Below, one piece after another: positions 55,823-62,699 of a DNA stretch of 64,000 nucleotides. This DNA comes from Desulfobacterales bacterium. Its GTDB lineage: Bacteria; Desulfobacterota; Desulfobacteria; Desulfobacterales; ETH-SRB1. The stretch covers positions 11,947 to 75,946 of the forward strand of contig JAUWQO010000001.1 in the NCBI GenBank assembly GCA_030610995.1, written 5' to 3'. Under the pieces are notes generated by a model. That model did no database searches and was not told the origin of the DNA. It was given only the letters and a program-made list of their open reading frames with translations. A program made the translations under genes and the position numbers. Each line of letters starts with the position of its first letter. Position 1 is the first letter of the stretch.

Positions 55823-55879
55823 GCAAACCTCTCCATTGGTCTCCGGTTAGTATGAACCGCAACAGCGAGCGCATTCCCC

Positions 55880-55941
55880 TCCATTCTAAATTTTCAAGAG
55901 CTATTGCCAAAAATCTTGATCTTGAAAACCTCTATATCGCG
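55880..55941 (+). repeat. 62-nt duplicate of codons ~9-29 of the EndoQ-UvrD gene (left copy)
   Basis: 'tccattctaaattttcaagagc..gccaaaaatcttga.cttgaaaacctctatat.gcg' differs from 57917-57978 at 6 positions, mostly synonymous in the gene frame. Confidence 0.9.
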
Positions 55942-55981
55942 CCCCGTTATAACCCTTTCCGTACCTTGGGGACGCCCTCGA

Positions 55982-56079
55982 CTAATTAGACTTAGGGCTA
56001 TTTAACCGATAAAGCGTTTTAGCAATTGCAGAAGGCGACACCCCAGATGACGGCCGGCTTCAGTCAGCGAAACACCCAT
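55982..56079 (-). pseudogene. frameshifted remnant of a small helix-turn-helix protein
   Basis: Hand translation gives 'MGVSLTEAGRHLG' then, after a frame change, 'VSPSAIAKTLYRLNSPKSN*'. Looks like an HTH recognition helix, about 32 aa in total. Confidence 0.35.
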
Positions 56080-56173
56080 GATTTTATGCGTCTATTTTCT
56101 CATCCATAATCTTAATTTCATGCTAAACTGATATCGGATTTTGTGTGTTATAAATCTCTTGGCAATGCAATAG

Positions 56174-56272
56174 TTTTCCTTCAATATTGCAATATTGTAT
56201 TTTTGAAGGAAAACCAATGTCTTCTTGAAATGTTTTCCTTCGATTTATGAAAAAGAATTAAAAGAAGGAAAT
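56174..56272 (+). promoter_or_regulatory. two operator-like inverted repeats upstream of and overlapping the start of the NTase-fold gene
   Basis: 'ttttccttcaa' N18 'ttgaaggaaaa' (56174-56213) and 'ttttccttcga' N19 'agaaggaaat' (56233-56272). Confidence 0.4.
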
Positions 56273-56275
56273 CTT

Positions 56276-57280
56276 ATGATTTTCAAGGAAATGACTGACA
56301 ACCAGCGGCGTGTTTTTATTGATACTATACAGCTTTACGAAGCATTTGTAGCAGCATTTAATAAAAATAGGTCATACAGAGGCGGCATGCACTGGAAAAA
56401 GTCAAAAGGTCGCGAATATTTGTTTAGATCTCGAGATCGTTTTGGCTACGGCAAAAGTTTAGGGCCGAGATCTCCTGAAACTGAAAAAATTCTCGCCCAG
56501 TTTCAACAAAGCAAGCAGCGTGAAAAGGAACGTCTGTCAGCGCTCAAAGATCGGCTTAAAGAGCAGTCCAGATTCTGCAAGGCTGCGCTGATTCAGCGAG
56601 TACCTCGGATTGTTAGCAGTATTTTACGATTGCTGGATCAGCAAAATATTCTCGGTCGAAATGTAATGGTGATCGGCACCAATGCAATGTATGCCTACGA
56701 AGCATCTGCGGGTGTGTTTTTTGACATGGATATTCTATGGGATATTCGTCCGAAACTTATTCTTGTTGCTGATAAGGATATAGATAATACTGGCTTGTTA
56801 GGTATTATTCGAAAAGCGGATCGGTCTTTTGAATCTATCAGTCCGGGTGGATTCCGAGCTGTAAACCGTGATGGATACATGGTGGATCTGATAAAATCAG
56901 AACCAAAGCAGTTGCTCAGAAAGGAAACAAGGCGGATGGGCGGGCCGGATGATCTGGAAGCCGCTGAAATTCGGAATCTTCAATGGCTTATTTCTTCTCC
57001 GAAGTTTTCTCAGGTCGTCATAGGAGACGATGGATATCCTGCTTCATTAGTTGTTCCTGATCCACGGGTATTTGCCTTGCATAAATTATGGTTAAGTGAA
57101 CAAGCGGATCGTGAACCAGTAAAAAAGCAGCGGGATCATGATCAGGGGTTGGCGGTCGCTCAACTCATTATTCAATATCTGCCACAATATCAGTTTAATA
57201 CATCTGAGCTTCGCATGTTTCCAAAGGATGTGGTTCAGAAAGCAAAAGAAAAGATTTCAGATATGAAAGTTAGGGGTTGA
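56276..57280 (+). CDS. nucleotidyltransferase-fold protein (GSU2403 / NTP_transf_8-like, by recollection)
   Basis: 334 aa from the ATG, with AAGGA upstream. 'VMVIGTNAMYAYEASAGVFFDMDILWD' resembles a minimal NTase G[ST]..D.D core. Family assignment unverified. Confidence 0.55.
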   Translation: MIFKEMTDNQRRVFIDTIQLYEAFVAAFNKNRSYRGGMHWKKSKGREYLFRSRDRFGYGKSLGPRSPETEKILAQFQQSKQREKERLSALKDRLKEQSRFCKAALIQRVPRIVSSILRLLDQQNILGRNVMVIGTNAMYAYEASAGVFFDMDILWDIRPKLILVADKDIDNTGLLGIIRKADRSFESISPGGFRAVNRDGYMVDLIKSEPKQLLRKETRRMGGPDDLEAAEIRNLQWLISSPKFSQVVIGDDGYPASLVVPDPRVFALHKLWLSEQADREPVKKQRDHDQGLAVAQLIIQYLPQYQFNTSELRMFPKDVVQKAKEKISDMKVRG

Positions 57281-57588
57281 ATTTAGGCGTTTCTTTTTCA
57301 TTTGTTTAGGAAATCTATGGGACTCCTCAGTTTATAAGTTTATATCGTCAAGAAATGAATATAGATTTTCTTTTGCAATTTTCTTCCTGTCTTTACACAA
57401 ACTCCGAAAGAAACAGGTGGGCTGAACATATCCTGATACCTTCCTTTGTGATCAGATCAATATCCCCCCCGGCGCTCAACCCACCCGGTTAAGGGCGGCG
57501 ATATGCAAAAAAATAATCTCCAGTTGCCTTTCAGCATTACACATGATAAATTATTTTATAGTGTGTGAAAAGAATAAGGAGGAAAAAT

Positions 57589-57789
57589 ATGGCCACTAAT
57601 TTAGCAATTGACGACAAATTAATCGAAGAAGCCCGTTTAGTTGGTCTACATCGTACCAAAAAAGCAGTTGTTACTGAAGCGCTCATTGAGTACATCCAAA
57701 GGCGCAAACAGGTTGAAATTATTAACCTGTTTGGCACGATAGAATATAAGTCAGATTATAATTATAAAGAACAGTGGAAGGTTAAATGA
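57589..57789 (+). CDS. vapB: VapB-type (RHH) antitoxin, with no cognate toxin gene
   Basis: 66 aa. 'MATNLAIDDKLIEEARLVGLHRTKKAVVTEALIEYIQRRKQ', with AGGAGG upstream. Only 96 nt separate it from the next gene, and no PIN ORF is present. Confidence 0.7.
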   Translation: MATNLAIDDKLIEEARLVGLHRTKKAVVTEALIEYIQRRKQVEIINLFGTIEYKSDYNYKEQWKVK

Positions 57790-57891
57790 ATGATTTCAAT
57801 CATTATAAAAAATAAAATGCGTATCAAGGCTTTAAAATCGTTCGGTTTTGTAAATATTTCGGAAAATTCTTGAGTCTAATTTCAGGTGCTT

Positions 57892-60800
57892 ATGAAATTT
57901 ATTGCCGATTTTCATGTCCATTCTAAATTTTCAAGAGCCACGGCCAAAAATCTTGACCTTGAAAACCTCTATATTGCGGCTCAATTAAAAGGCATTACTG
58001 TTGTTGGAACAGGCGATTTTACACATCCCGGCTGGTTTGCGGAAATAAAGGAAAAATTAAAGCCGGCAGAGGAAGGGCTTTTTAAATTAAAAAGGGAAAT
58101 CGCCGGGGAATGCGACGAAAAGGTCCCGTTATCCTGCCGCGGCAAGGTTCGTTTTGTCCTGGTTTCTGAGATCAGCAATATCTATAAAAAAAATAATAAA
58201 ACCCGTAAAAATCATAATCTTGTATTTGTGCCCGACCTGGATGTTGCCTGTAAATTTAGTTCAAAACTGGATAAGATCGGAAATATTAAATCTGATGGAA
58301 GGCCTATACTTGGGCTTGATGCAAGAAATCTTCTTGAAATACTTCTTGAGACATCCGACAGATCTTTTTTGATTCCCGCCCATATATGGACGCCATGGTT
58401 CTCGGTTCTTGGTTCAAAGTCCGGGTTTAACTCTATCAGTGAATGTTTTGAGGATCTTACCCCCCATATATTTGCCGCTGAAACAGGCCTTTCATCCGAT
58501 CCGCCGATGAACTGGCGTGTATCAAGCCTTGACAACCTTACCCTTGTATCAAATTCAGATGCCCACTCTCCGTTAAAACTCGGTCGGGAGGCAAATCTTT
58601 TCAACACCAACCTTTCATATTCCGCAATAAGAGATGCAATAAAGACGGGTGATCGCAAGCATTTCTTAGGCACCTTTGAATTTTATCCTGAAGAAGGAAA
58701 ATATCATCTGGACGGACACCGCAAATGCTCTGTTTGTCTTTGGCCAAAAAAAACTATAAAAAATAAAGGAATATGTCCGGTTTGCGGGAAACCTTTGACC
58801 ATAGGAGTATTATATCGCGTTGAAGAATTGGCGGATCGGCCAAAGCATGAAAAGCCGCAGAAAACCCACCCTTATTACAGCATAGTTCCTCTGGTCAATA
58901 TTTTATCAGAAATATTAAAGGTCGGTCCAGGGTCAAAAAAGGTCATGAATAATTACAATACAGCGCTTGATATTCTTGGCCCGGAATTGAGTATACTTCA
59001 CAATCTATCTCCGGAGGCCATTGATAAGGCCGGCATTCCGCTGCTTGGTGAGGCTGTAAAAAGGATGCGCAGGGAAGAAATCGATATTTCCCCTGGATAT
59101 GATGGCGAGTTTGGCCGCGTGAAGATATTTAAAGACCAGGAGCGTGAACGTTTGATGGGCCAGAAATCACTATTTATCATGCCGGAGACAGATTCGACGA
59201 CAAAGGCGCATAAAAGATACATAACAAAACAACAAAATAGAAAAACAGAGCTTAAGCAGCCTTCACAAGATTTTGGAAGCCTGCGGTCGTCAAGAGGCAA
59301 GGGTTTAAATACGCAGCAACGACAGGCAGTTTGCCACGATGGGGGGCCTTTATTGATTGTCGCAGGACCCGGGACCGGCAAAACCCATACCATTACCTGC
59401 AGGATAGCCTGCCTGATAAAAGAAAAAAATGTTTTACCGGAAAGTATTCTTGCAGTAACATTTACAAATAAGGCTGCCAGGGAAATGAAAGACCGGATTA
59501 AACGCATCACAGGAAGTAACGTGATCCCAAATGTAAGCACCTTTCACTCATTATGCTTAAAAATTTTAAAGGACAGGGGAAATAATCAGACTCATACCAT
59601 TGTCGATGACGATGATCGAATGGCTCTGATTTCAGAGGCGATAAAACAGGCTGACGCCGGAGGCTGTAAGGTATCTTTGTCAAAAAAGTATCTGTTAGAC
59701 AAAATTATATCAGCCAAACAGCAGATACTGCAGCCCCATGATAATTTAGAAGGGGTGGCCGGAAAGGCTGAAATAAATACATTCGCAAGGGTATATCAAG
59801 CATATCAGGACATTTTATCTGCCCAGTCCCTTTACGATTTTGAAGATCTTATATTAAAAGTAGTCCTGCGTTTTGAAGCAGACAAACAATTTACCAATAT
59901 CTACCGGCAACGTTTCAAGTATATATTTGTGGATGAATACCAGGACATAAACCATGGCCAATACCGGATTATAAAAGCCCTGGCTCCGCCTGACAAGGAT
60001 CTTTGCGTTATCGGTGATCCAAATCAATCGATTTACGGTTTCCGAGGTTCCGATGTTCGCTTTTTTGAGCGCTTTCTTGAGGATTATCCACAGGGCAGTA
60101 TTATTCATCTAAATCAAAATTATCGCTCTACTCAGACTATTCTTGAAGCTTCTTATCAGATCATAACAAACCGTAGCATAGATACAAAAACAGATAATCT
60201 TTCAAACTCGCGTGTTTATTCCCAGATAGACGGCGTAAAAACGATCAGTATTCTTGAACTCGCCTCTGAAAAAGCAGAAGCAGTGGCTATAGGCAAAACA
60301 ATTGAAGCCCTGACAGGAGGACTATCCTTTCATGCCATAGATTCAGGCAAGATTGAGGATATAAATACCAAAGAAGACAGAAGCTTTTCAGATTTTGCTG
60401 TTTTGTATCGTACCAACAGCCAGAGTAAAATAATTGAGCAGGTTTTTGAAAAAGCGGGAATTCCCTGCCAAATCGCAAGCAGAGAAAGTCTGTTCAGACA
60501 GAAAGGGGTCACAGAGCTTATTTCTATGCTTAAGATCATAGATGGGCAGGGCTCCTTTGCCGACCTTAAAAGGACAGTTAAGTTATTATCAACCGGCATC
60601 AGCGACGAGACGATAAAAATATTTACGAGATGGTGCTGCCGGAATCATTTTACTTTAACAAAAGGATTTTATAATGCCCGGCGTTTCCCAATACCCGGTA
60701 TGAGCAAAGCCCGCCAGTCGAAATTCCATAATTTTTTAGTCGAGTTGTCTGGATTGCAAAAGGCTGTTAATGAGAAAAGTGTGGAAGAAAAACTTCATTT

Positions 60801-61302
60801 TATTGTAAATAACACTAAACTTGCTTCGACGTTAAAACAGCATCCCAAAAGAAATGAGGCTGTGGACAGGCTGACAGGGATGTCTAAGGAGTTTGGCGAT
60901 AATGCGGCGAACTTTTTTGAGATGACGGCTCTGCAGACAGATACGGATATATACGATTCACGGGCTGAAAAGGTCGCCTTAATGACCATGCATGCTGCCA
61001 AGGGCCTGGAATTTCCGGTGGTTTTTATTGCCGGATGCGAAAAAGAGTTTATTCCCTTTATAAGGCCCGGAGAAGAGCTTGTTGATATTGATGAAGAAAG
61101 AAGACTTTTTTACGTGGCCATGACCCGTGCAAGGGAAAGATTGTATTTAACTATGGCAAAAAAGCGGACGATATATGGGAAGCGCACTTTAAGAACAATT
61201 TCACCTTTTGTGGAAGATATTGAGCAAAGGTTGATGAAACGTAAAAAGAGCTATTTGAAAAGGAAGGAAAAAGAAAGCCGGCTTCAACTTACATTGTTTT
61301 AA
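57892..61302 (+). CDS. fusion protein: EndoQ-like PHP endonuclease (N-terminal ~415 aa) plus UvrD/PcrA-type SF1 DNA helicase (C-terminal ~670 aa)
   Basis: EndoQ-order motifs 'DFHVHSKFSRA', 'GTGDFTHPGW', 'PAHIWTPW', 'SNSDAHSP', 'GKYHLDGH', zinc finger 'CSVC..CPVCGKPL', 'PGYDGEFG'. Helicase motifs 'GPGTGKTHT', 'FVDEYQDIN', 'GDPNQSIYGFRG', 'NYRST', 'MHAAKGLEFPVVF', 'YVAMTRARERL'. Confidence 0.85.
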   Translation: MKFIADFHVHSKFSRATAKNLDLENLYIAAQLKGITVVGTGDFTHPGWFAEIKEKLKPAEEGLFKLKREIAGECDEKVPLSCRGKVRFVLVSEISNIYKKNNKTRKNHNLVFVPDLDVACKFSSKLDKIGNIKSDGRPILGLDARNLLEILLETSDRSFLIPAHIWTPWFSVLGSKSGFNSISECFEDLTPHIFAAETGLSSDPPMNWRVSSLDNLTLVSNSDAHSPLKLGREANLFNTNLSYSAIRDAIKTGDRKHFLGTFEFYPEEGKYHLDGHRKCSVCLWPKKTIKNKGICPVCGKPLTIGVLYRVEELADRPKHEKPQKTHPYYSIVPLVNILSEILKVGPGSKKVMNNYNTALDILGPELSILHNLSPEAIDKAGIPLLGEAVKRMRREEIDISPGYDGEFGRVKIFKDQERERLMGQKSLFIMPETDSTTKAHKRYITKQQNRKTELKQPSQDFGSLRSSRGKGLNTQQRQAVCHDGGPLLIVAGPGTGKTHTITCRIACLIKEKNVLPESILAVTFTNKAAREMKDRIKRITGSNVIPNVSTFHSLCLKILKDRGNNQTHTIVDDDDRMALISEAIKQADAGGCKVSLSKKYLLDKIISAKQQILQPHDNLEGVAGKAEINTFARVYQAYQDILSAQSLYDFEDLILKVVLRFEADKQFTNIYRQRFKYIFVDEYQDINHGQYRIIKALAPPDKDLCVIGDPNQSIYGFRGSDVRFFERFLEDYPQGSIIHLNQNYRSTQTILEASYQIITNRSIDTKTDNLSNSRVYSQIDGVKTISILELASEKAEAVAIGKTIEALTGGLSFHAIDSGKIEDINTKEDRSFSDFAVLYRTNSQSKIIEQVFEKAGIPCQIASRESLFRQKGVTELISMLKIIDGQGSFADLKRTVKLLSTGISDETIKIFTRWCCRNHFTLTKGFYNARRFPIPGMSKARQSKFHNFLVELSGLQKAVNEKSVEEKLHFIVNNTKLASTLKQHPKRNEAVDRLTGMSKEFGDNAANFFEMTALQTDTDIYDSRAEKVALMTMHAAKGLEFPVVFIAGCEKEFIPFIRPGEELVDIDEERRLFYVAMTRARERLYLTMAKKRTIYGKRTLRTISPFVEDIEQRLMKRKKSYLKRKEKESRLQLTLF
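57917..57978 (+). repeat. 62-nt repeat (right copy, inside the EndoQ-UvrD coding sequence)
   Basis: See 55880-55941. Confidence 0.9.
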
Positions 61303-61808: not shown

Positions 61809-62699
61809 ATGCCTGATGTAGATGAAATAAAAGAGGCTAAAAAGTTTTATTCAGATATTCCCCAAAAGACGGAAGGGTTTTTTCTTAAAGGATCAAATGC
61901 TCTGGACTGGGGTATTAAAAACCGGCTTGCCCGGATCTTTAACCCTGAATCGGGACGAACTGTTATGCTGGCCATAGACCACGGCTATTTCCAGGGCCCG
62001 ACCACAGGGCTGGAACGGATTGACATAAATATTCTTCCGCTGGTTCCTTATGCAGACACACTTATGTTAACACGGGGTATATTAAGGAGCATTGTTCCTC
62101 CAACCATATCAAAGTCCATTGTTCTGAGAGTTTCCGGCGGGACAAGCATACTAAAGGAACTTTCAAACGAAGATATTGCCGTGGATATCGAGGAATCTAT
62201 ACGTCTCAATGTTTGCGCCATGGCTGTCCAGGTATTCATCGGCGGCGAACATGAAAGGGAATCGATTAAAAACATGACCAGCATGGTGGATATGGGAATG
62301 CGTTATGGAATCCCGACTCTGGCTGTGACCGCAGTCGGCAAGAACATGAACCACGATGCGCGCTACTTCAGGCTTGCTGTCAGGATCTGCGCCGAATTAG
62401 GAGCACACTACATAAAAACATACTATATTGAAAAAGGTTTTGAAACCGTCACGTCCTCCTGCCCTGTTCCTATTGTCATGGCCGGAGGGAAGAAAATACC
62501 TGAACTTGACGCCTTAACAATGGCTTATAACGCAGTTCAGCAGGGCGCCAGCGGAGTTGATATGGGACGCAATATCTTCCAGTCTGAGTCCCCAATCGCG
62601 ATGATCCAGGCTGTAAGGGCTGTTGTCCATGATAATGAAACGCCGGAAAAGGCCTTTGATCTTTATAATACTATAAAAAACCAATCGGCCGGTTCATAA
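61809..62699 (+). CDS. lsrF: LsrF/DhnA-family class I aldolase (3-hydroxy-5-phosphonooxypentane-2,4-dione thiolase-like)
   Basis: 296 aa. Long stretches match my recollection of E. coli LsrF: 'LDWG...[33 protein letters not shown]', 'IKTYY.EKGFE', 'CPVPIV.AGGKK', '[15 protein letters not shown]'. Confidence 0.8.

Follow-up and report, generated by a model that had tools for sequence, protein, structure and literature searches.

A UvrD/PcrA-like helicase fused to endonuclease Q in a Desulfobacterales bacterium and its relatives, with clamp-binding-type motifs and a candidate role in excision repair

Incision of DNA directly 5′ of deoxyuridine (dU), deoxyinosine (dI), deoxyxanthosine (dX), or an abasic (AP) site by endonuclease Q (EndoQ) has been demonstrated only for archaeal and Bacillus standalone enzymes (PMC4357722, PMC5961232); the described EndoQs include PfuEndoQ (PF1551; PDB 5ZB8 and 7K30), TkoEndoQ, and those of Bacillus pumilus and Bacillus subtilis, and the corresponding family model is TIGR00375. 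The nick yields a 3′-OH and a 5′-P (PMC4357722). PfuEndoQ then remains on the nicked product in what is predicted to be a single-turnover reaction (PMC5961232), and the step after the nick was drawn by the original authors as a hypothetical polymerase or "helicase activity". Here, we describe a gene from a Desulfobacterales bacterium (lineage ETH-SRB1) that encodes an EndoQ fused to a UvrD/PcrA-like helicase, with a short clamp-binding-type motif at the end of each module. The gene lies in a 64,000-nt stretch of DNA (GenBank assembly GCA_030610995.1, contig JAUWQO010000001.1, positions 11,947 to 75,946), hereafter termed the window. At a probability of roughly 0.6, the function of the fusion would be clamp-tethered, lesion-specific nick-and-unwind excision repair.

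A site-specific nick, a UvrD-family helicase, and resynthesis are likewise combined by MutH or MutL with UvrD in mismatch repair (MMR), by UvrC with UvrD in nucleotide excision repair (NER), and by RepD with PcrA in rolling-circle replication. Nick-initiated 3′-5′ unwinding is carried out by UvrD in NER and MMR and by PcrA after RepD nicking, with PcrA tracking on the intact strand; in NER, UvrD serves both oligonucleotide removal and UvrC turnover, while in Bacillus-type MMR the MutL nickase is clamp dependent. The system described here differs in that nickase and helicase are housed in one polypeptide or operon, in that the nickase itself would recognise the lesion, and in that it comes without a MutS-, MutL-, or UvrAB-type sensor.

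EndoQ homologues in Bacillus and Desulfovibrio were noted by Shiraishi et al. in 2015 (PMC4357722), followed in 2016 by the report that bacterial EndoQ homologues carry β-clamp motifs (Shiraishi et al., Sci Rep 6:25532, PMC4858679). Supplementary Figure S1 of the latter, on "bacterial EndoQ homologs", tabulates short (405-464 aa) and long (945-1244 aa) forms. The long ones include those of Desulfobacter curvatus (1088 aa), Desulfobacterium autotrophicum (1156 aa), and Geobacter metallireducens (1075 aa), as well as Desulfovibrio spp., Sorangium, Caldilinea, Rhodothermus, Zymomonas, and Treponema; QL[DS]LF stands at the extreme C-terminus of the tabulated long homologues, and the word "helicase" is applied to them neither in the main text nor in the supplement. 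These long homologues belong to the same family as the window protein, members of which carry the database labels "UvrD-helicase domain-containing protein", "TIGR00375 family", and Pfam MJ0043_C. A full-text literature search, with the 2017 Bacillus pumilus EndoQ paper outside its coverage, returned no paper describing or testing the fusion. The EndoQ-UvrD architecture has hence been seen before, not interpreted: an initial annotation of this DNA knew of no biochemical description of the architecture, which stands, but long forms are in the 2016 table and the family has database labels. That table leaves the internal second motif and the split operons unmentioned, and the long forms were untried there; as far as checked, neither the internal motif nor the split operons nor the logic of two motifs had been described before.

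The two halves of the fusion protein

The fusion gene is a real, native chromosomal gene of the Desulfobacterales bacterium. Its open reading frame (ORF) runs without interruption on the + strand from GTG 57886 or ATG 57892 to a stop codon at 61300-61302, with ATG 57892 (1136 aa) as the likely start because homologues begin MKFIADLH. The ORF list bears out the single unbroken 1136-codon ORF (57892-61302, +) of the initial annotation, and the EndoQ and superfamily 1A (SF1A) helicase motifs listed there, in the order stated, were each mapped to coordinates. As predicted from its sequence, the protein is laid out as EndoQ nuclease, clamp motif, flexible linker, UvrD/PcrA-like helicase, basic tail, and clamp motif. 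Two alignments are referred to throughout: a 9-sequence alignment with PfuEndoQ (A2) and a 34-sequence family alignment (A3). The features of the gene are as follows.

57892..61302, + strand: complete EndoQ-UvrD fusion gene, 1136 codons plus stop (ORF list; full-length homologues at 57-94% identity)
57892..58686, + strand: EndoQ PHP nuclease domain, aa 1-265 (alignment to PfuEndoQ; residue list of PMC5961232)
58687..58881, + strand: EndoQ Zn-binding domain, aa 266-330 (ligands H276, C279, C295, C298)
58882..59151, + strand: EndoQ C-terminal helical domain with PGYDGEFG hairpin, aa 331-420 (phmmer, Foldseek)
59161..59175, + strand: internal clamp-binding-type motif QKSLF, aa 424-428, at the domain junction (A3, junction alignment, controls)
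59176..59295, + strand: disordered basic linker, aa 429-468 (pLDDT <40; 9 K+R, 4 D+E)
59296..61239, + strand: SF1A UvrD/PcrA-like helicase, aa 469-1116, motifs all intact (Pfam, NCBIfam, PDB phmmer)
61240..61284, + strand: basic C-terminal tail RKKSYLKRKEKESRL (motif mapping)
61285..61299, + strand: C-terminal clamp-binding-type motif QLTLF, aa 1132-1136, the final five residues (A3, homologue counts, controls)

The N-terminal half matches PfuEndoQ throughout. In a phmmer search of PDB sequences, aa 5-416 align to PfuEndoQ 5-386 of 400 (E 4e-46 to ~1e-45) at an identity of ~30-33%, and the TIGR00375 profile of NCBIfam aligns by positions 2-374 of 374 to aa 5-410. The three-domain EndoQ architecture (PHP, Zn-binding, C-terminal helical) is present, and homologues of the window protein bear Pfam PF27218 (MJ0043_C). 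An AlphaFold model of aa 1-473 (predicted local distance difference test [pLDDT] 76, predicted template-modelling score [pTM] 0.78; linker 430-473 <40) was matched by Foldseek to PfuEndoQ 5ZB8 and 7K30 over the full chain (E 5.5e-29, template-modelling score 0.83), whereas the runner-up folds were generic PHP domains (Pol III alpha, RNase AM; E ~4e-3). The N-terminal part is thus, as initially annotated, a complete EndoQ and not a generic PHP protein without zinc-binding and C-terminal domains. Its motifs lie at DFHVH (aa 6-10), PAHIWTPW (162-169), ETGLSSD (197-203), SNSDAHS (220-226), GKYHLDGHRKC (269-279), CPVC (295-298), and GYDGEFG (402-408).

Conservation extends to individual functional residues. 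The PfuEndoQ metal ligands H8, H10, E76, H84, H139, and D193 correspond to H8, H10, E93, H108, H164, and D223 of the window protein; R114 and H195 correspond to R137 and H225; and the lesion-pocket residues T142, E167, G169, L170, S171, and N191 correspond to T167, E197, G199, L200, S201, and N221. Metal, catalytic, and pocket residues are invariant in A2 and A3; the proposed wedge W144 (window W169) holds throughout A3, and one of the nine A2 sequences has His at this position. All PfuEndoQ residues whose importance was established by mutagenesis (H8, H10, E76, H84, R114, H139, W144, G169, L170, D193, H195; PMC5961232) are conserved, and all but the wedge are invariant in A2. The zinc ligands C249, C252, C268, and C271 align to H276, C279, C295, and C298, with K270 and Y271 corresponding to PfuEndoQ K243 and Y244; the site is therefore His-Cys3 and not of the C4 type found in EndoQ, and this predicted site can probably still bind zinc. 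The Cys4 finger "CSVC...CPVC" proposed in the initial annotation accordingly falls away, since C282 of CSVC is nonhomologous and variable in the family.

Two insertions relative to PfuEndoQ occur in the PHP domain, at aa 67-85 (nt ~58090-58146) and aa 97-106 (nt ~58180-58209). The second is an invariant basic segment, I-Y-K-K-x-x-K-x-R-K, directly before the catalytic H108, and could provide an extra DNA contact or a helicase contact.

Compared with the described EndoQs, the window protein thus shares the three-domain fold, the catalytic, pocket, and wedge residues, and a clamp-interaction motif after the C-terminal domain, at the position of the archaeal PCNA-interacting (PIP) box. It differs in its low identity (~30-33%), a TIGR00375 score below the cut-off, the His-Cys3 site, the two PHP insertions, and the covalent attachment to a 650-aa helicase.

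The C-terminal half is detected by Pfam as UvrD-helicase (aa 472-733; E 2.5e-77, 260.6 bits versus a cut-off of 23) and UvrD_C (aa 738-1090; E 4.9e-55, 187.8 bits versus 25.6). Among PDB sequences, phmmer matched aa 472-1116 to residues 12-647 of 724 of Geobacillus PcrA (1PJR; E 3e-99), and the NCBIfam PcrA profile aligns to aa 471-1128. The motif series comprises the Q-motif (472-480), Walker A (492-498), DEYQD (681-685), GDPNQSIYGFRG (708-719), NYRST (743-747), MHAAKGLEFPVVF (1033-1045), and YVAMTRARERL (1074-1084). Invariance across the 34 sequences of A3 covers the residues of Walker A and B and of motifs III, IV, and VI, including Walker A (G496-K497-T498), DEYQD 681-685, motif III 708-719, and the individual residues K497, D681, E682, R745, and R1079. 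The intact SF1A helicase of the initial annotation is confirmed by these invariant motifs and by Pfam scores above gathering values.

The PcrA C-terminal partner-binding domain (~650-724) is missing, its place being taken by a 20-aa basic tail with QLTLF (C-terminal end ...KEKESRLQLTLF), which makes the helicase a paralog that resembles UvrD and PcrA rather than an orthologue of PcrA, UvrD, or Rep. With those helicases (PDB 1PJR, 2IS1, 9DCI), it has in common all helicase motifs and the 1A/1B/2A/2B layout; unlike them, it is not an equivalog of any of the three, and it has a nickase of its own where those helicases are recruited by MutL, UvrB, or RepD. By homology, the helicase should be a nick-initiated 3′-5′ unwinding enzyme. 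Membership in AddA/RecB was considered and rejected, as the nuclease is an N-terminal EndoQ and the AddA/RecB matches are partial, subthreshold, and confined to the helicase motifs.

The linker between the halves is variable in length across the family, with 53 to 213 aa between GYDGEFG and Walker A. A full-length AlphaFold model (pLDDT 62, pTM 0.46) was too poor for domain packing and was kept out of the fold search. Alignments show the predicted nuclease and helicase modules to be both complete and both under purifying selection.

Fused, split, and standalone forms and their clamp-binding-type motifs

A word-indexed search recovered at least 120 full-length homologues (1121-1175 aa) at 57-94% identity; their sources are independent genomes and metagenomes, including the closed chromosome of Desulfonema magnum. 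With the EndoQ half as query, HMMER returned 3566 cluster representatives at E <=1e-3 and 1078 at <=1e-30; 129 of the best 150 (50%-identity clusters) are at least 940 aa long and fused, and the shorter ones among these 150 are mostly truncated fusions still bearing Walker A. A scan of one genome per GTDB species yielded at least 599 EndoQ loci. Those listed span Desulfobacterota, Chloroflexota, Rhodothermota, Latescibacterota, KSB1, Fibrobacterota, Binatia, Planctomycetota, Omnitrophota, Nitrospirota, Candidate Phyla Radiation groups, Firmicutes, Elusimicrobiota, Acidobacteriota, Myxococcota, Actinobacteria, Alphaproteobacteria, and others.

Forms were counted among the best 80 of these at least 599 loci, 72 of which have complete ORFs, with fused defined as >=900 aa. 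Fusions make up 47/72 and occur across ~18 phyla, closed genomes (Desulfonema magnum, Sorangium, Caldilineaceae) included. In a further 9/72, a short EndoQ gene is followed directly downstream, on the same strand, by a UvrD-type helicase gene; such pairs are found in Planctomycetales, Omnitrophota, Peribacteria, Peregrinibacteria, Elusimicrobia, Nitrospirae, and one deltaproteobacterium, with intergenic gaps of -41 to 249 nt (eight loci with a recovered downstream ORF), and three of the split helicases were checked and confirmed by Pfam. The fused-or-split survey suggested in the initial annotation hence turned up both forms, and their joint occurrence supports a functional coupling of nick and helicase. 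In a neighbor-joining tree of EndoQ domains, a rough one without support values, fused, split, and standalone forms are interleaved and shallow clades track taxonomy, which points to modules that have repeatedly fused, separated, or been lost while inheritance was mostly vertical. The EndoQ half is much the more conserved, with a median identity to the window protein of 57% versus 34% for the helicase half.

Five split helicases are only 483-515 aa long (L046:3556-5007, L049:4412-5863, L051:7384-8907, L060:7311-8858, and L063:7451-8977; L numbers designate loci of the survey). They are without the stretch that matches residues ~400-545 of the window helicase, still end in a clamp motif, and presumably miss much of the 2B domain; they are minimal UvrD-like motors. 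A different departure is seen in the Desulfobacterales metagenome-assembled genome Yes71-19 (L005:5097-8042), the closest genome-collection relative of the EndoQ half among the matches listed (89% identity): its EndoQ-only ORF stops right after the hairpin motif, without the junction clamp motif, and the 1.6 kb downstream hold no ORF of >=80 aa, no helicase, and no informative repeats. Recent truncation, gene decay, or a contig chimera could each account for it.

The putative clamp motifs, overlooked in the initial annotation, are the strongest clue to the enzyme's place of work. The bacterial β-clamp consensus is QL[D/S]LF (PMC4858679, Supplementary Figure S1), and the window motif equals it; a pentapeptide of the QL[SD]LF type characteristic of β-clamp binders is present both at the terminus and at the junction, and is strongly enriched over controls. 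At the C-terminus, Q1132, L1135, and F1136 are invariant in A3, and the strict QLxLF occurs in 160/241 long homologues, or 202/241 if the looser Q-h-x-h-h is allowed. With 569 unrelated ORFs from the same loci as controls, a C-terminal Q..[LM]F is found in 40/46 fused proteins and 14/22 short EndoQs, versus 2/569 control ORFs. At the junction, Q424, L427, and F428 are invariant in A3, and a strict regular expression detects the internal motif in 22/46 fused loci versus 6/2845 random control windows.

The internal motif, G-QKSLF, directly follows the EndoQ C-terminal hairpin and, in the junction alignment, coincides exactly with the terminal Q-x-x-L-F of standalone and split EndoQs. Of the eight split-operon helicase ORFs recovered, seven terminate in Q-x-x-[LM]-F, with QLKLF, QMKLF, QMTLF (twice), QVSMF, and QMGLF among the extreme C-termini, and that of L060 has QPALF nine residues ahead of its C-terminal end; in split operons, nuclease and helicase proteins each terminate in a clamp-type motif of their own. 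With a motif at the end of each module, the fusion reads as EndoQ plus clamp-binding motif and helicase plus clamp-binding motif set end to end. Two such motifs per polypeptide would suit a dimeric β clamp. Among EndoQ-clamp pairs, only the archaeal EndoQ-PCNA interaction has been measured so far; it proceeds via a C-terminal PIP box, with a dissociation constant of 55 nM, and stimulates EndoQ (PMC4858679).

Genomic setting and the inserted cassette

Upstream of the fusion gene lie argG, argH, lysA, dapF, an aminotransferase gene, folK, tal, pgsA, tRNA-Gly, and tRNA-Cys; downstream are an LsrF-like thiolase gene and an AcrB-type pump gene. Together with the phage and plasmid searches described below, the flanking genes form a housekeeping pattern and not a defence-island pattern. 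GC content is 0.37-0.45 across the region, without a clear island signature.

Immediately upstream, the region has been rearranged. Two direct repeats of 62 nt (92% identity; 55880-55941 and 57917-57978, 2037-bp spacing) were found by tblastn self-match and a repeat finder, the right copy being codons 9-29 of the fusion gene. The corresponding features are as follows.

55853..55941, + strand: dead remnant of the original 5′ end, comprising native leader, ATG, and the 62-nt copy of codons 9-29 (translation, L087 alignment)
55942..57916, + strand: inserted cassette, between the 62-nt direct repeats, source of the substitute leader and codons 1-8 (repeats, L087 alignment)
56225-57280: NTP_transf_8 ORF of the cassette (Pfam)
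57565-57789: VapB-like ORF of the cassette, an orphan (Pfam)

In the nearest relative (L087, 94% identity), tal-pgsA-tRNA-Gly-tRNA-Cys is followed directly by the gene, i.e., by an empty site. Alignment with it shows that the left repeat copy has kept the native leader and ATG and lost the HxH codons, leaving a dead stub, and that the leader of the live gene differs from the native one and comes from the insert. The gene is therefore native, the target of an insertion beside tRNA-Cys and not its cargo; the insertion hotspot by tRNA genes of the initial annotation is real insofar as a ~2-kb cassette was inserted there, but the gene itself was not imported. A Pfam scan of the cassette found neither a recombinase nor VapC, and the cassette ORFs match no PADLOC or PHROG family.

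Neighbours vary even among 91%-identical relatives, with recJ in one and a rubredoxin cluster in another, and also differ in Desulfonema, Eth-SRB1, and other loci; a conserved-operon search found no recurrent neighbour besides the split helicase and a dnaN/gyrB/RdgC-like block in Desulfobacterales. This block, an RdgC-like gene, a 178-aa ORF, dnaN, and gyrB, lies divergently upstream of the fusion by 0.2-5 kb in 10-11 Desulfobacterales loci of one subclade (e.g., L020, L033, L039); an SLT lytic transglycosylase gene is found just downstream in nine loci. The proximity of dnaN is suggestive, yet may simply be inherited synteny. In one locus only, that of a 91%-identical relative, recJ is encoded divergently just upstream of the fusion gene (L085:1097-2842, - strand); RecJ, a 5′-3′ single-stranded-DNA exonuclease, could plausibly assist by degrading the 5′ strand once it is displaced. 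In Desulfonema magnum, a gene for the very-short-patch repair endonuclease Vsr lies ~1.3 kb upstream (L001:6058-6726, + strand), and toxin-antitoxin genes (HicB-like, BrnT) and an HNH gene are found downstream.

The LsrF-like ORF of the window (61809-62699, + strand) scores 508 bits versus a cut-off of 297 to NF006081, the LsrF-type 3-hydroxy-5-phosphonooxypentane-2,4-dione thiolase of autoinducer-2 catabolism; it is unexpected in Desulfobacterales, and no further lsr genes are evident in the flank. Assignment to the Gabija system (GajA-GajB) was rejected, the GajB-model match being generic and the neighbours being the VapB-like ORF and the LsrF-like aldolase gene, without an OLD-family GajA. 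Scans for promoters and terminators found promoter-like sites at about the expected number (12 versus 11.2) and no convincing terminator directly 3′ of the stop codon.

A candidate nick-and-unwind repair mechanism

In the mechanism that we favour, one or both Q-x-x-L-F motifs would tether the enzyme to the dimeric β sliding clamp that stays behind on DNA after replication or repair. With dU, dI, dX, or an AP site flipped into its conserved pocket, the EndoQ module would then nick the strand directly 5′ of the lesion, as PfuEndoQ and Bacillus EndoQ do. Starting at the nick and probably tracking on the intact strand, the tethered 3′-5′ helicase would peel away the lesion-bearing 5′ end and dislodge the product-bound nuclease; the retention of PfuEndoQ on its product affords a plausible role for such a helicase. 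A clamp-bound polymerase would extend the 3′-OH, and a flap nuclease or exonuclease together with ligase would complete the repair. The outcome would be a nick-directed excision pathway that is independent of glycosylases.

Several points weigh against this reading. The TIGR00375 score (155.1 bits) falls short of the curated cut-off (326.6), as do the PcrA (486/911), UvrD (370/1144), and Rep (389/951 bits) scores, so that the equivalog level is not reached and the window protein represents a diverged clade of both families; in addition, the first zinc-ligand position, H276, is an invariant His in place of Cys. Approximately 13/72 EndoQ relatives have no helicase in the available flank, which implies that EndoQ can work without this helicase. 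The poor full-length model offers no structural evidence for a defined nuclease-helicase interface, and besides the helicase no conserved operon partner (polymerase, ligase, or flap nuclease) was found. Finally, the nick-and-unwind mechanism itself, and with it the substrate range, helicase polarity, coupling, and clamp binding of the fused members, is what we infer from sequence.

The helicase may instead be a scanning or recycling motor, which delivers EndoQ along DNA or strips it from its product, the lesion being removed by Pol I-type strand displacement. This alternative, which we consider unlikely while still giving it real weight, fits the persistence of PfuEndoQ on its product and its predicted single turnover (PMC5961232), the split helicases of only 483-515 aa without most of region ~400-545, which would suffice as minimal motors, and the much faster evolution of the helicase half (34% versus 57% median identity). 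Against it, all helicase motifs are conserved, beyond those for ATPase activity, and UvrD in NER does both jobs; sequence evidence does not separate it from clamp-tethered nick-and-unwind repair. A defence or surveillance enzyme that nicks and unwinds foreign DNA with dU or other noncanonical bases, e.g., that of uracil-DNA phages, is a more doubtful proposition. UvrD-like helicases are known in defence systems, the helicase half matches GajB models, and the gene adjoins a small inserted cassette with a VapB-like gene, but any UvrD-type helicase would be expected to match GajB, the gene has no GajA-like partner beside it, and the cassette, which the nearest relative lacks, was inserted later. 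Across 50,697 phage records, tblastn found no copy, and among 72,556 plasmids a single one (on a Brevibacillus megaplasmid), leaving a mobile or defence origin unsupported. The EndoQ half matches no PADLOC or PHROG family and its domain is 55-60% identical across phyla, unlike fast-evolving defence genes; the neighbours are housekeeping genes that vary among relatives, not defence islands, and the clamp motifs point toward the host replication and repair machinery. The surveillance of dU DNA suggested in the initial annotation finds no support in these results.

It is more improbable still that the protein is an AddA/RecB-like processor of ends or stalled forks, in which the PHP domain would be a general nuclease instead of a lesion-specific nickase. 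UvrD-family helicase-nuclease fusions are common, AddA and RecB are among the weaker NCBIfam matches, and an RdgC-like gene, dnaN, and gyrB lie near the gene in some loci and recJ in one. However, the nuclease is an EndoQ with a lesion pocket, a near-invariant wedge W169, and a Zn domain, not a PD-(D/E)xK enzyme; the domain order is opposite to that of AddA and RecB; the ORF list shows no adjacent AddB/RecC-like partner; and standalone EndoQs of the same clade exist. As for an artefactual fusion, whether through an assembly chimera or a frameshift joining two genes, the occurrence elsewhere of split versions with short gaps means that one indel could fuse or split them. The frame is nevertheless unbroken in at least 120 homologues (57-94% identity), in 129/150 best cluster representatives, and in closed genomes, and the junction carries a conserved motif and linker; with one reading frame kept across hundreds of independent genomes, an assembly-made fusion is ruled out, and the probability of any such artefact is negligible.

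Beyond clamp-tethered nick-and-unwind repair by the single protein, we tentatively propose, at somewhat less than even odds, that the EndoQ-helicase pair, whether fused or encoded in an operon, constitutes a distinct and widespread bacterial excision-repair pathway, in which one polypeptide, or the two proteins together, could fill both pockets of the β-clamp dimer and nicking would be mechanically coupled to strand removal on newly replicated DNA. This would amount to a mismatch-repair analogue for deaminated bases that operates without a glycosylase. If true, the pathway might act in place of uracil-DNA glycosylase, or as a backup to it, across many anaerobic and uncultured phyla.

EndoQ usually figures as a speciality of archaea without defined downstream steps, and the family described here shows which helicase evolution has chosen for it: a dedicated UvrD/PcrA-like paralog, repeatedly fused to or co-transcribed with EndoQ, both being equipped with motifs for docking on the sliding clamp. 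What follows the EndoQ nick thereby becomes a directly testable model, with Geobacter metallireducens, Desulfovibrio vulgaris, Zymomonas mobilis, Sorangium, and Rhodothermus as culturable hosts of the family. An enzyme combining incision at dU or dI with unwinding from the nick in one polypeptide could also be a useful reagent beside current EndoQ-based deamination assays. With at least 599 species genomes encoding it, EndoQ-type repair would be far commoner in Bacteria than the "limited number of bacteria" of the literature.

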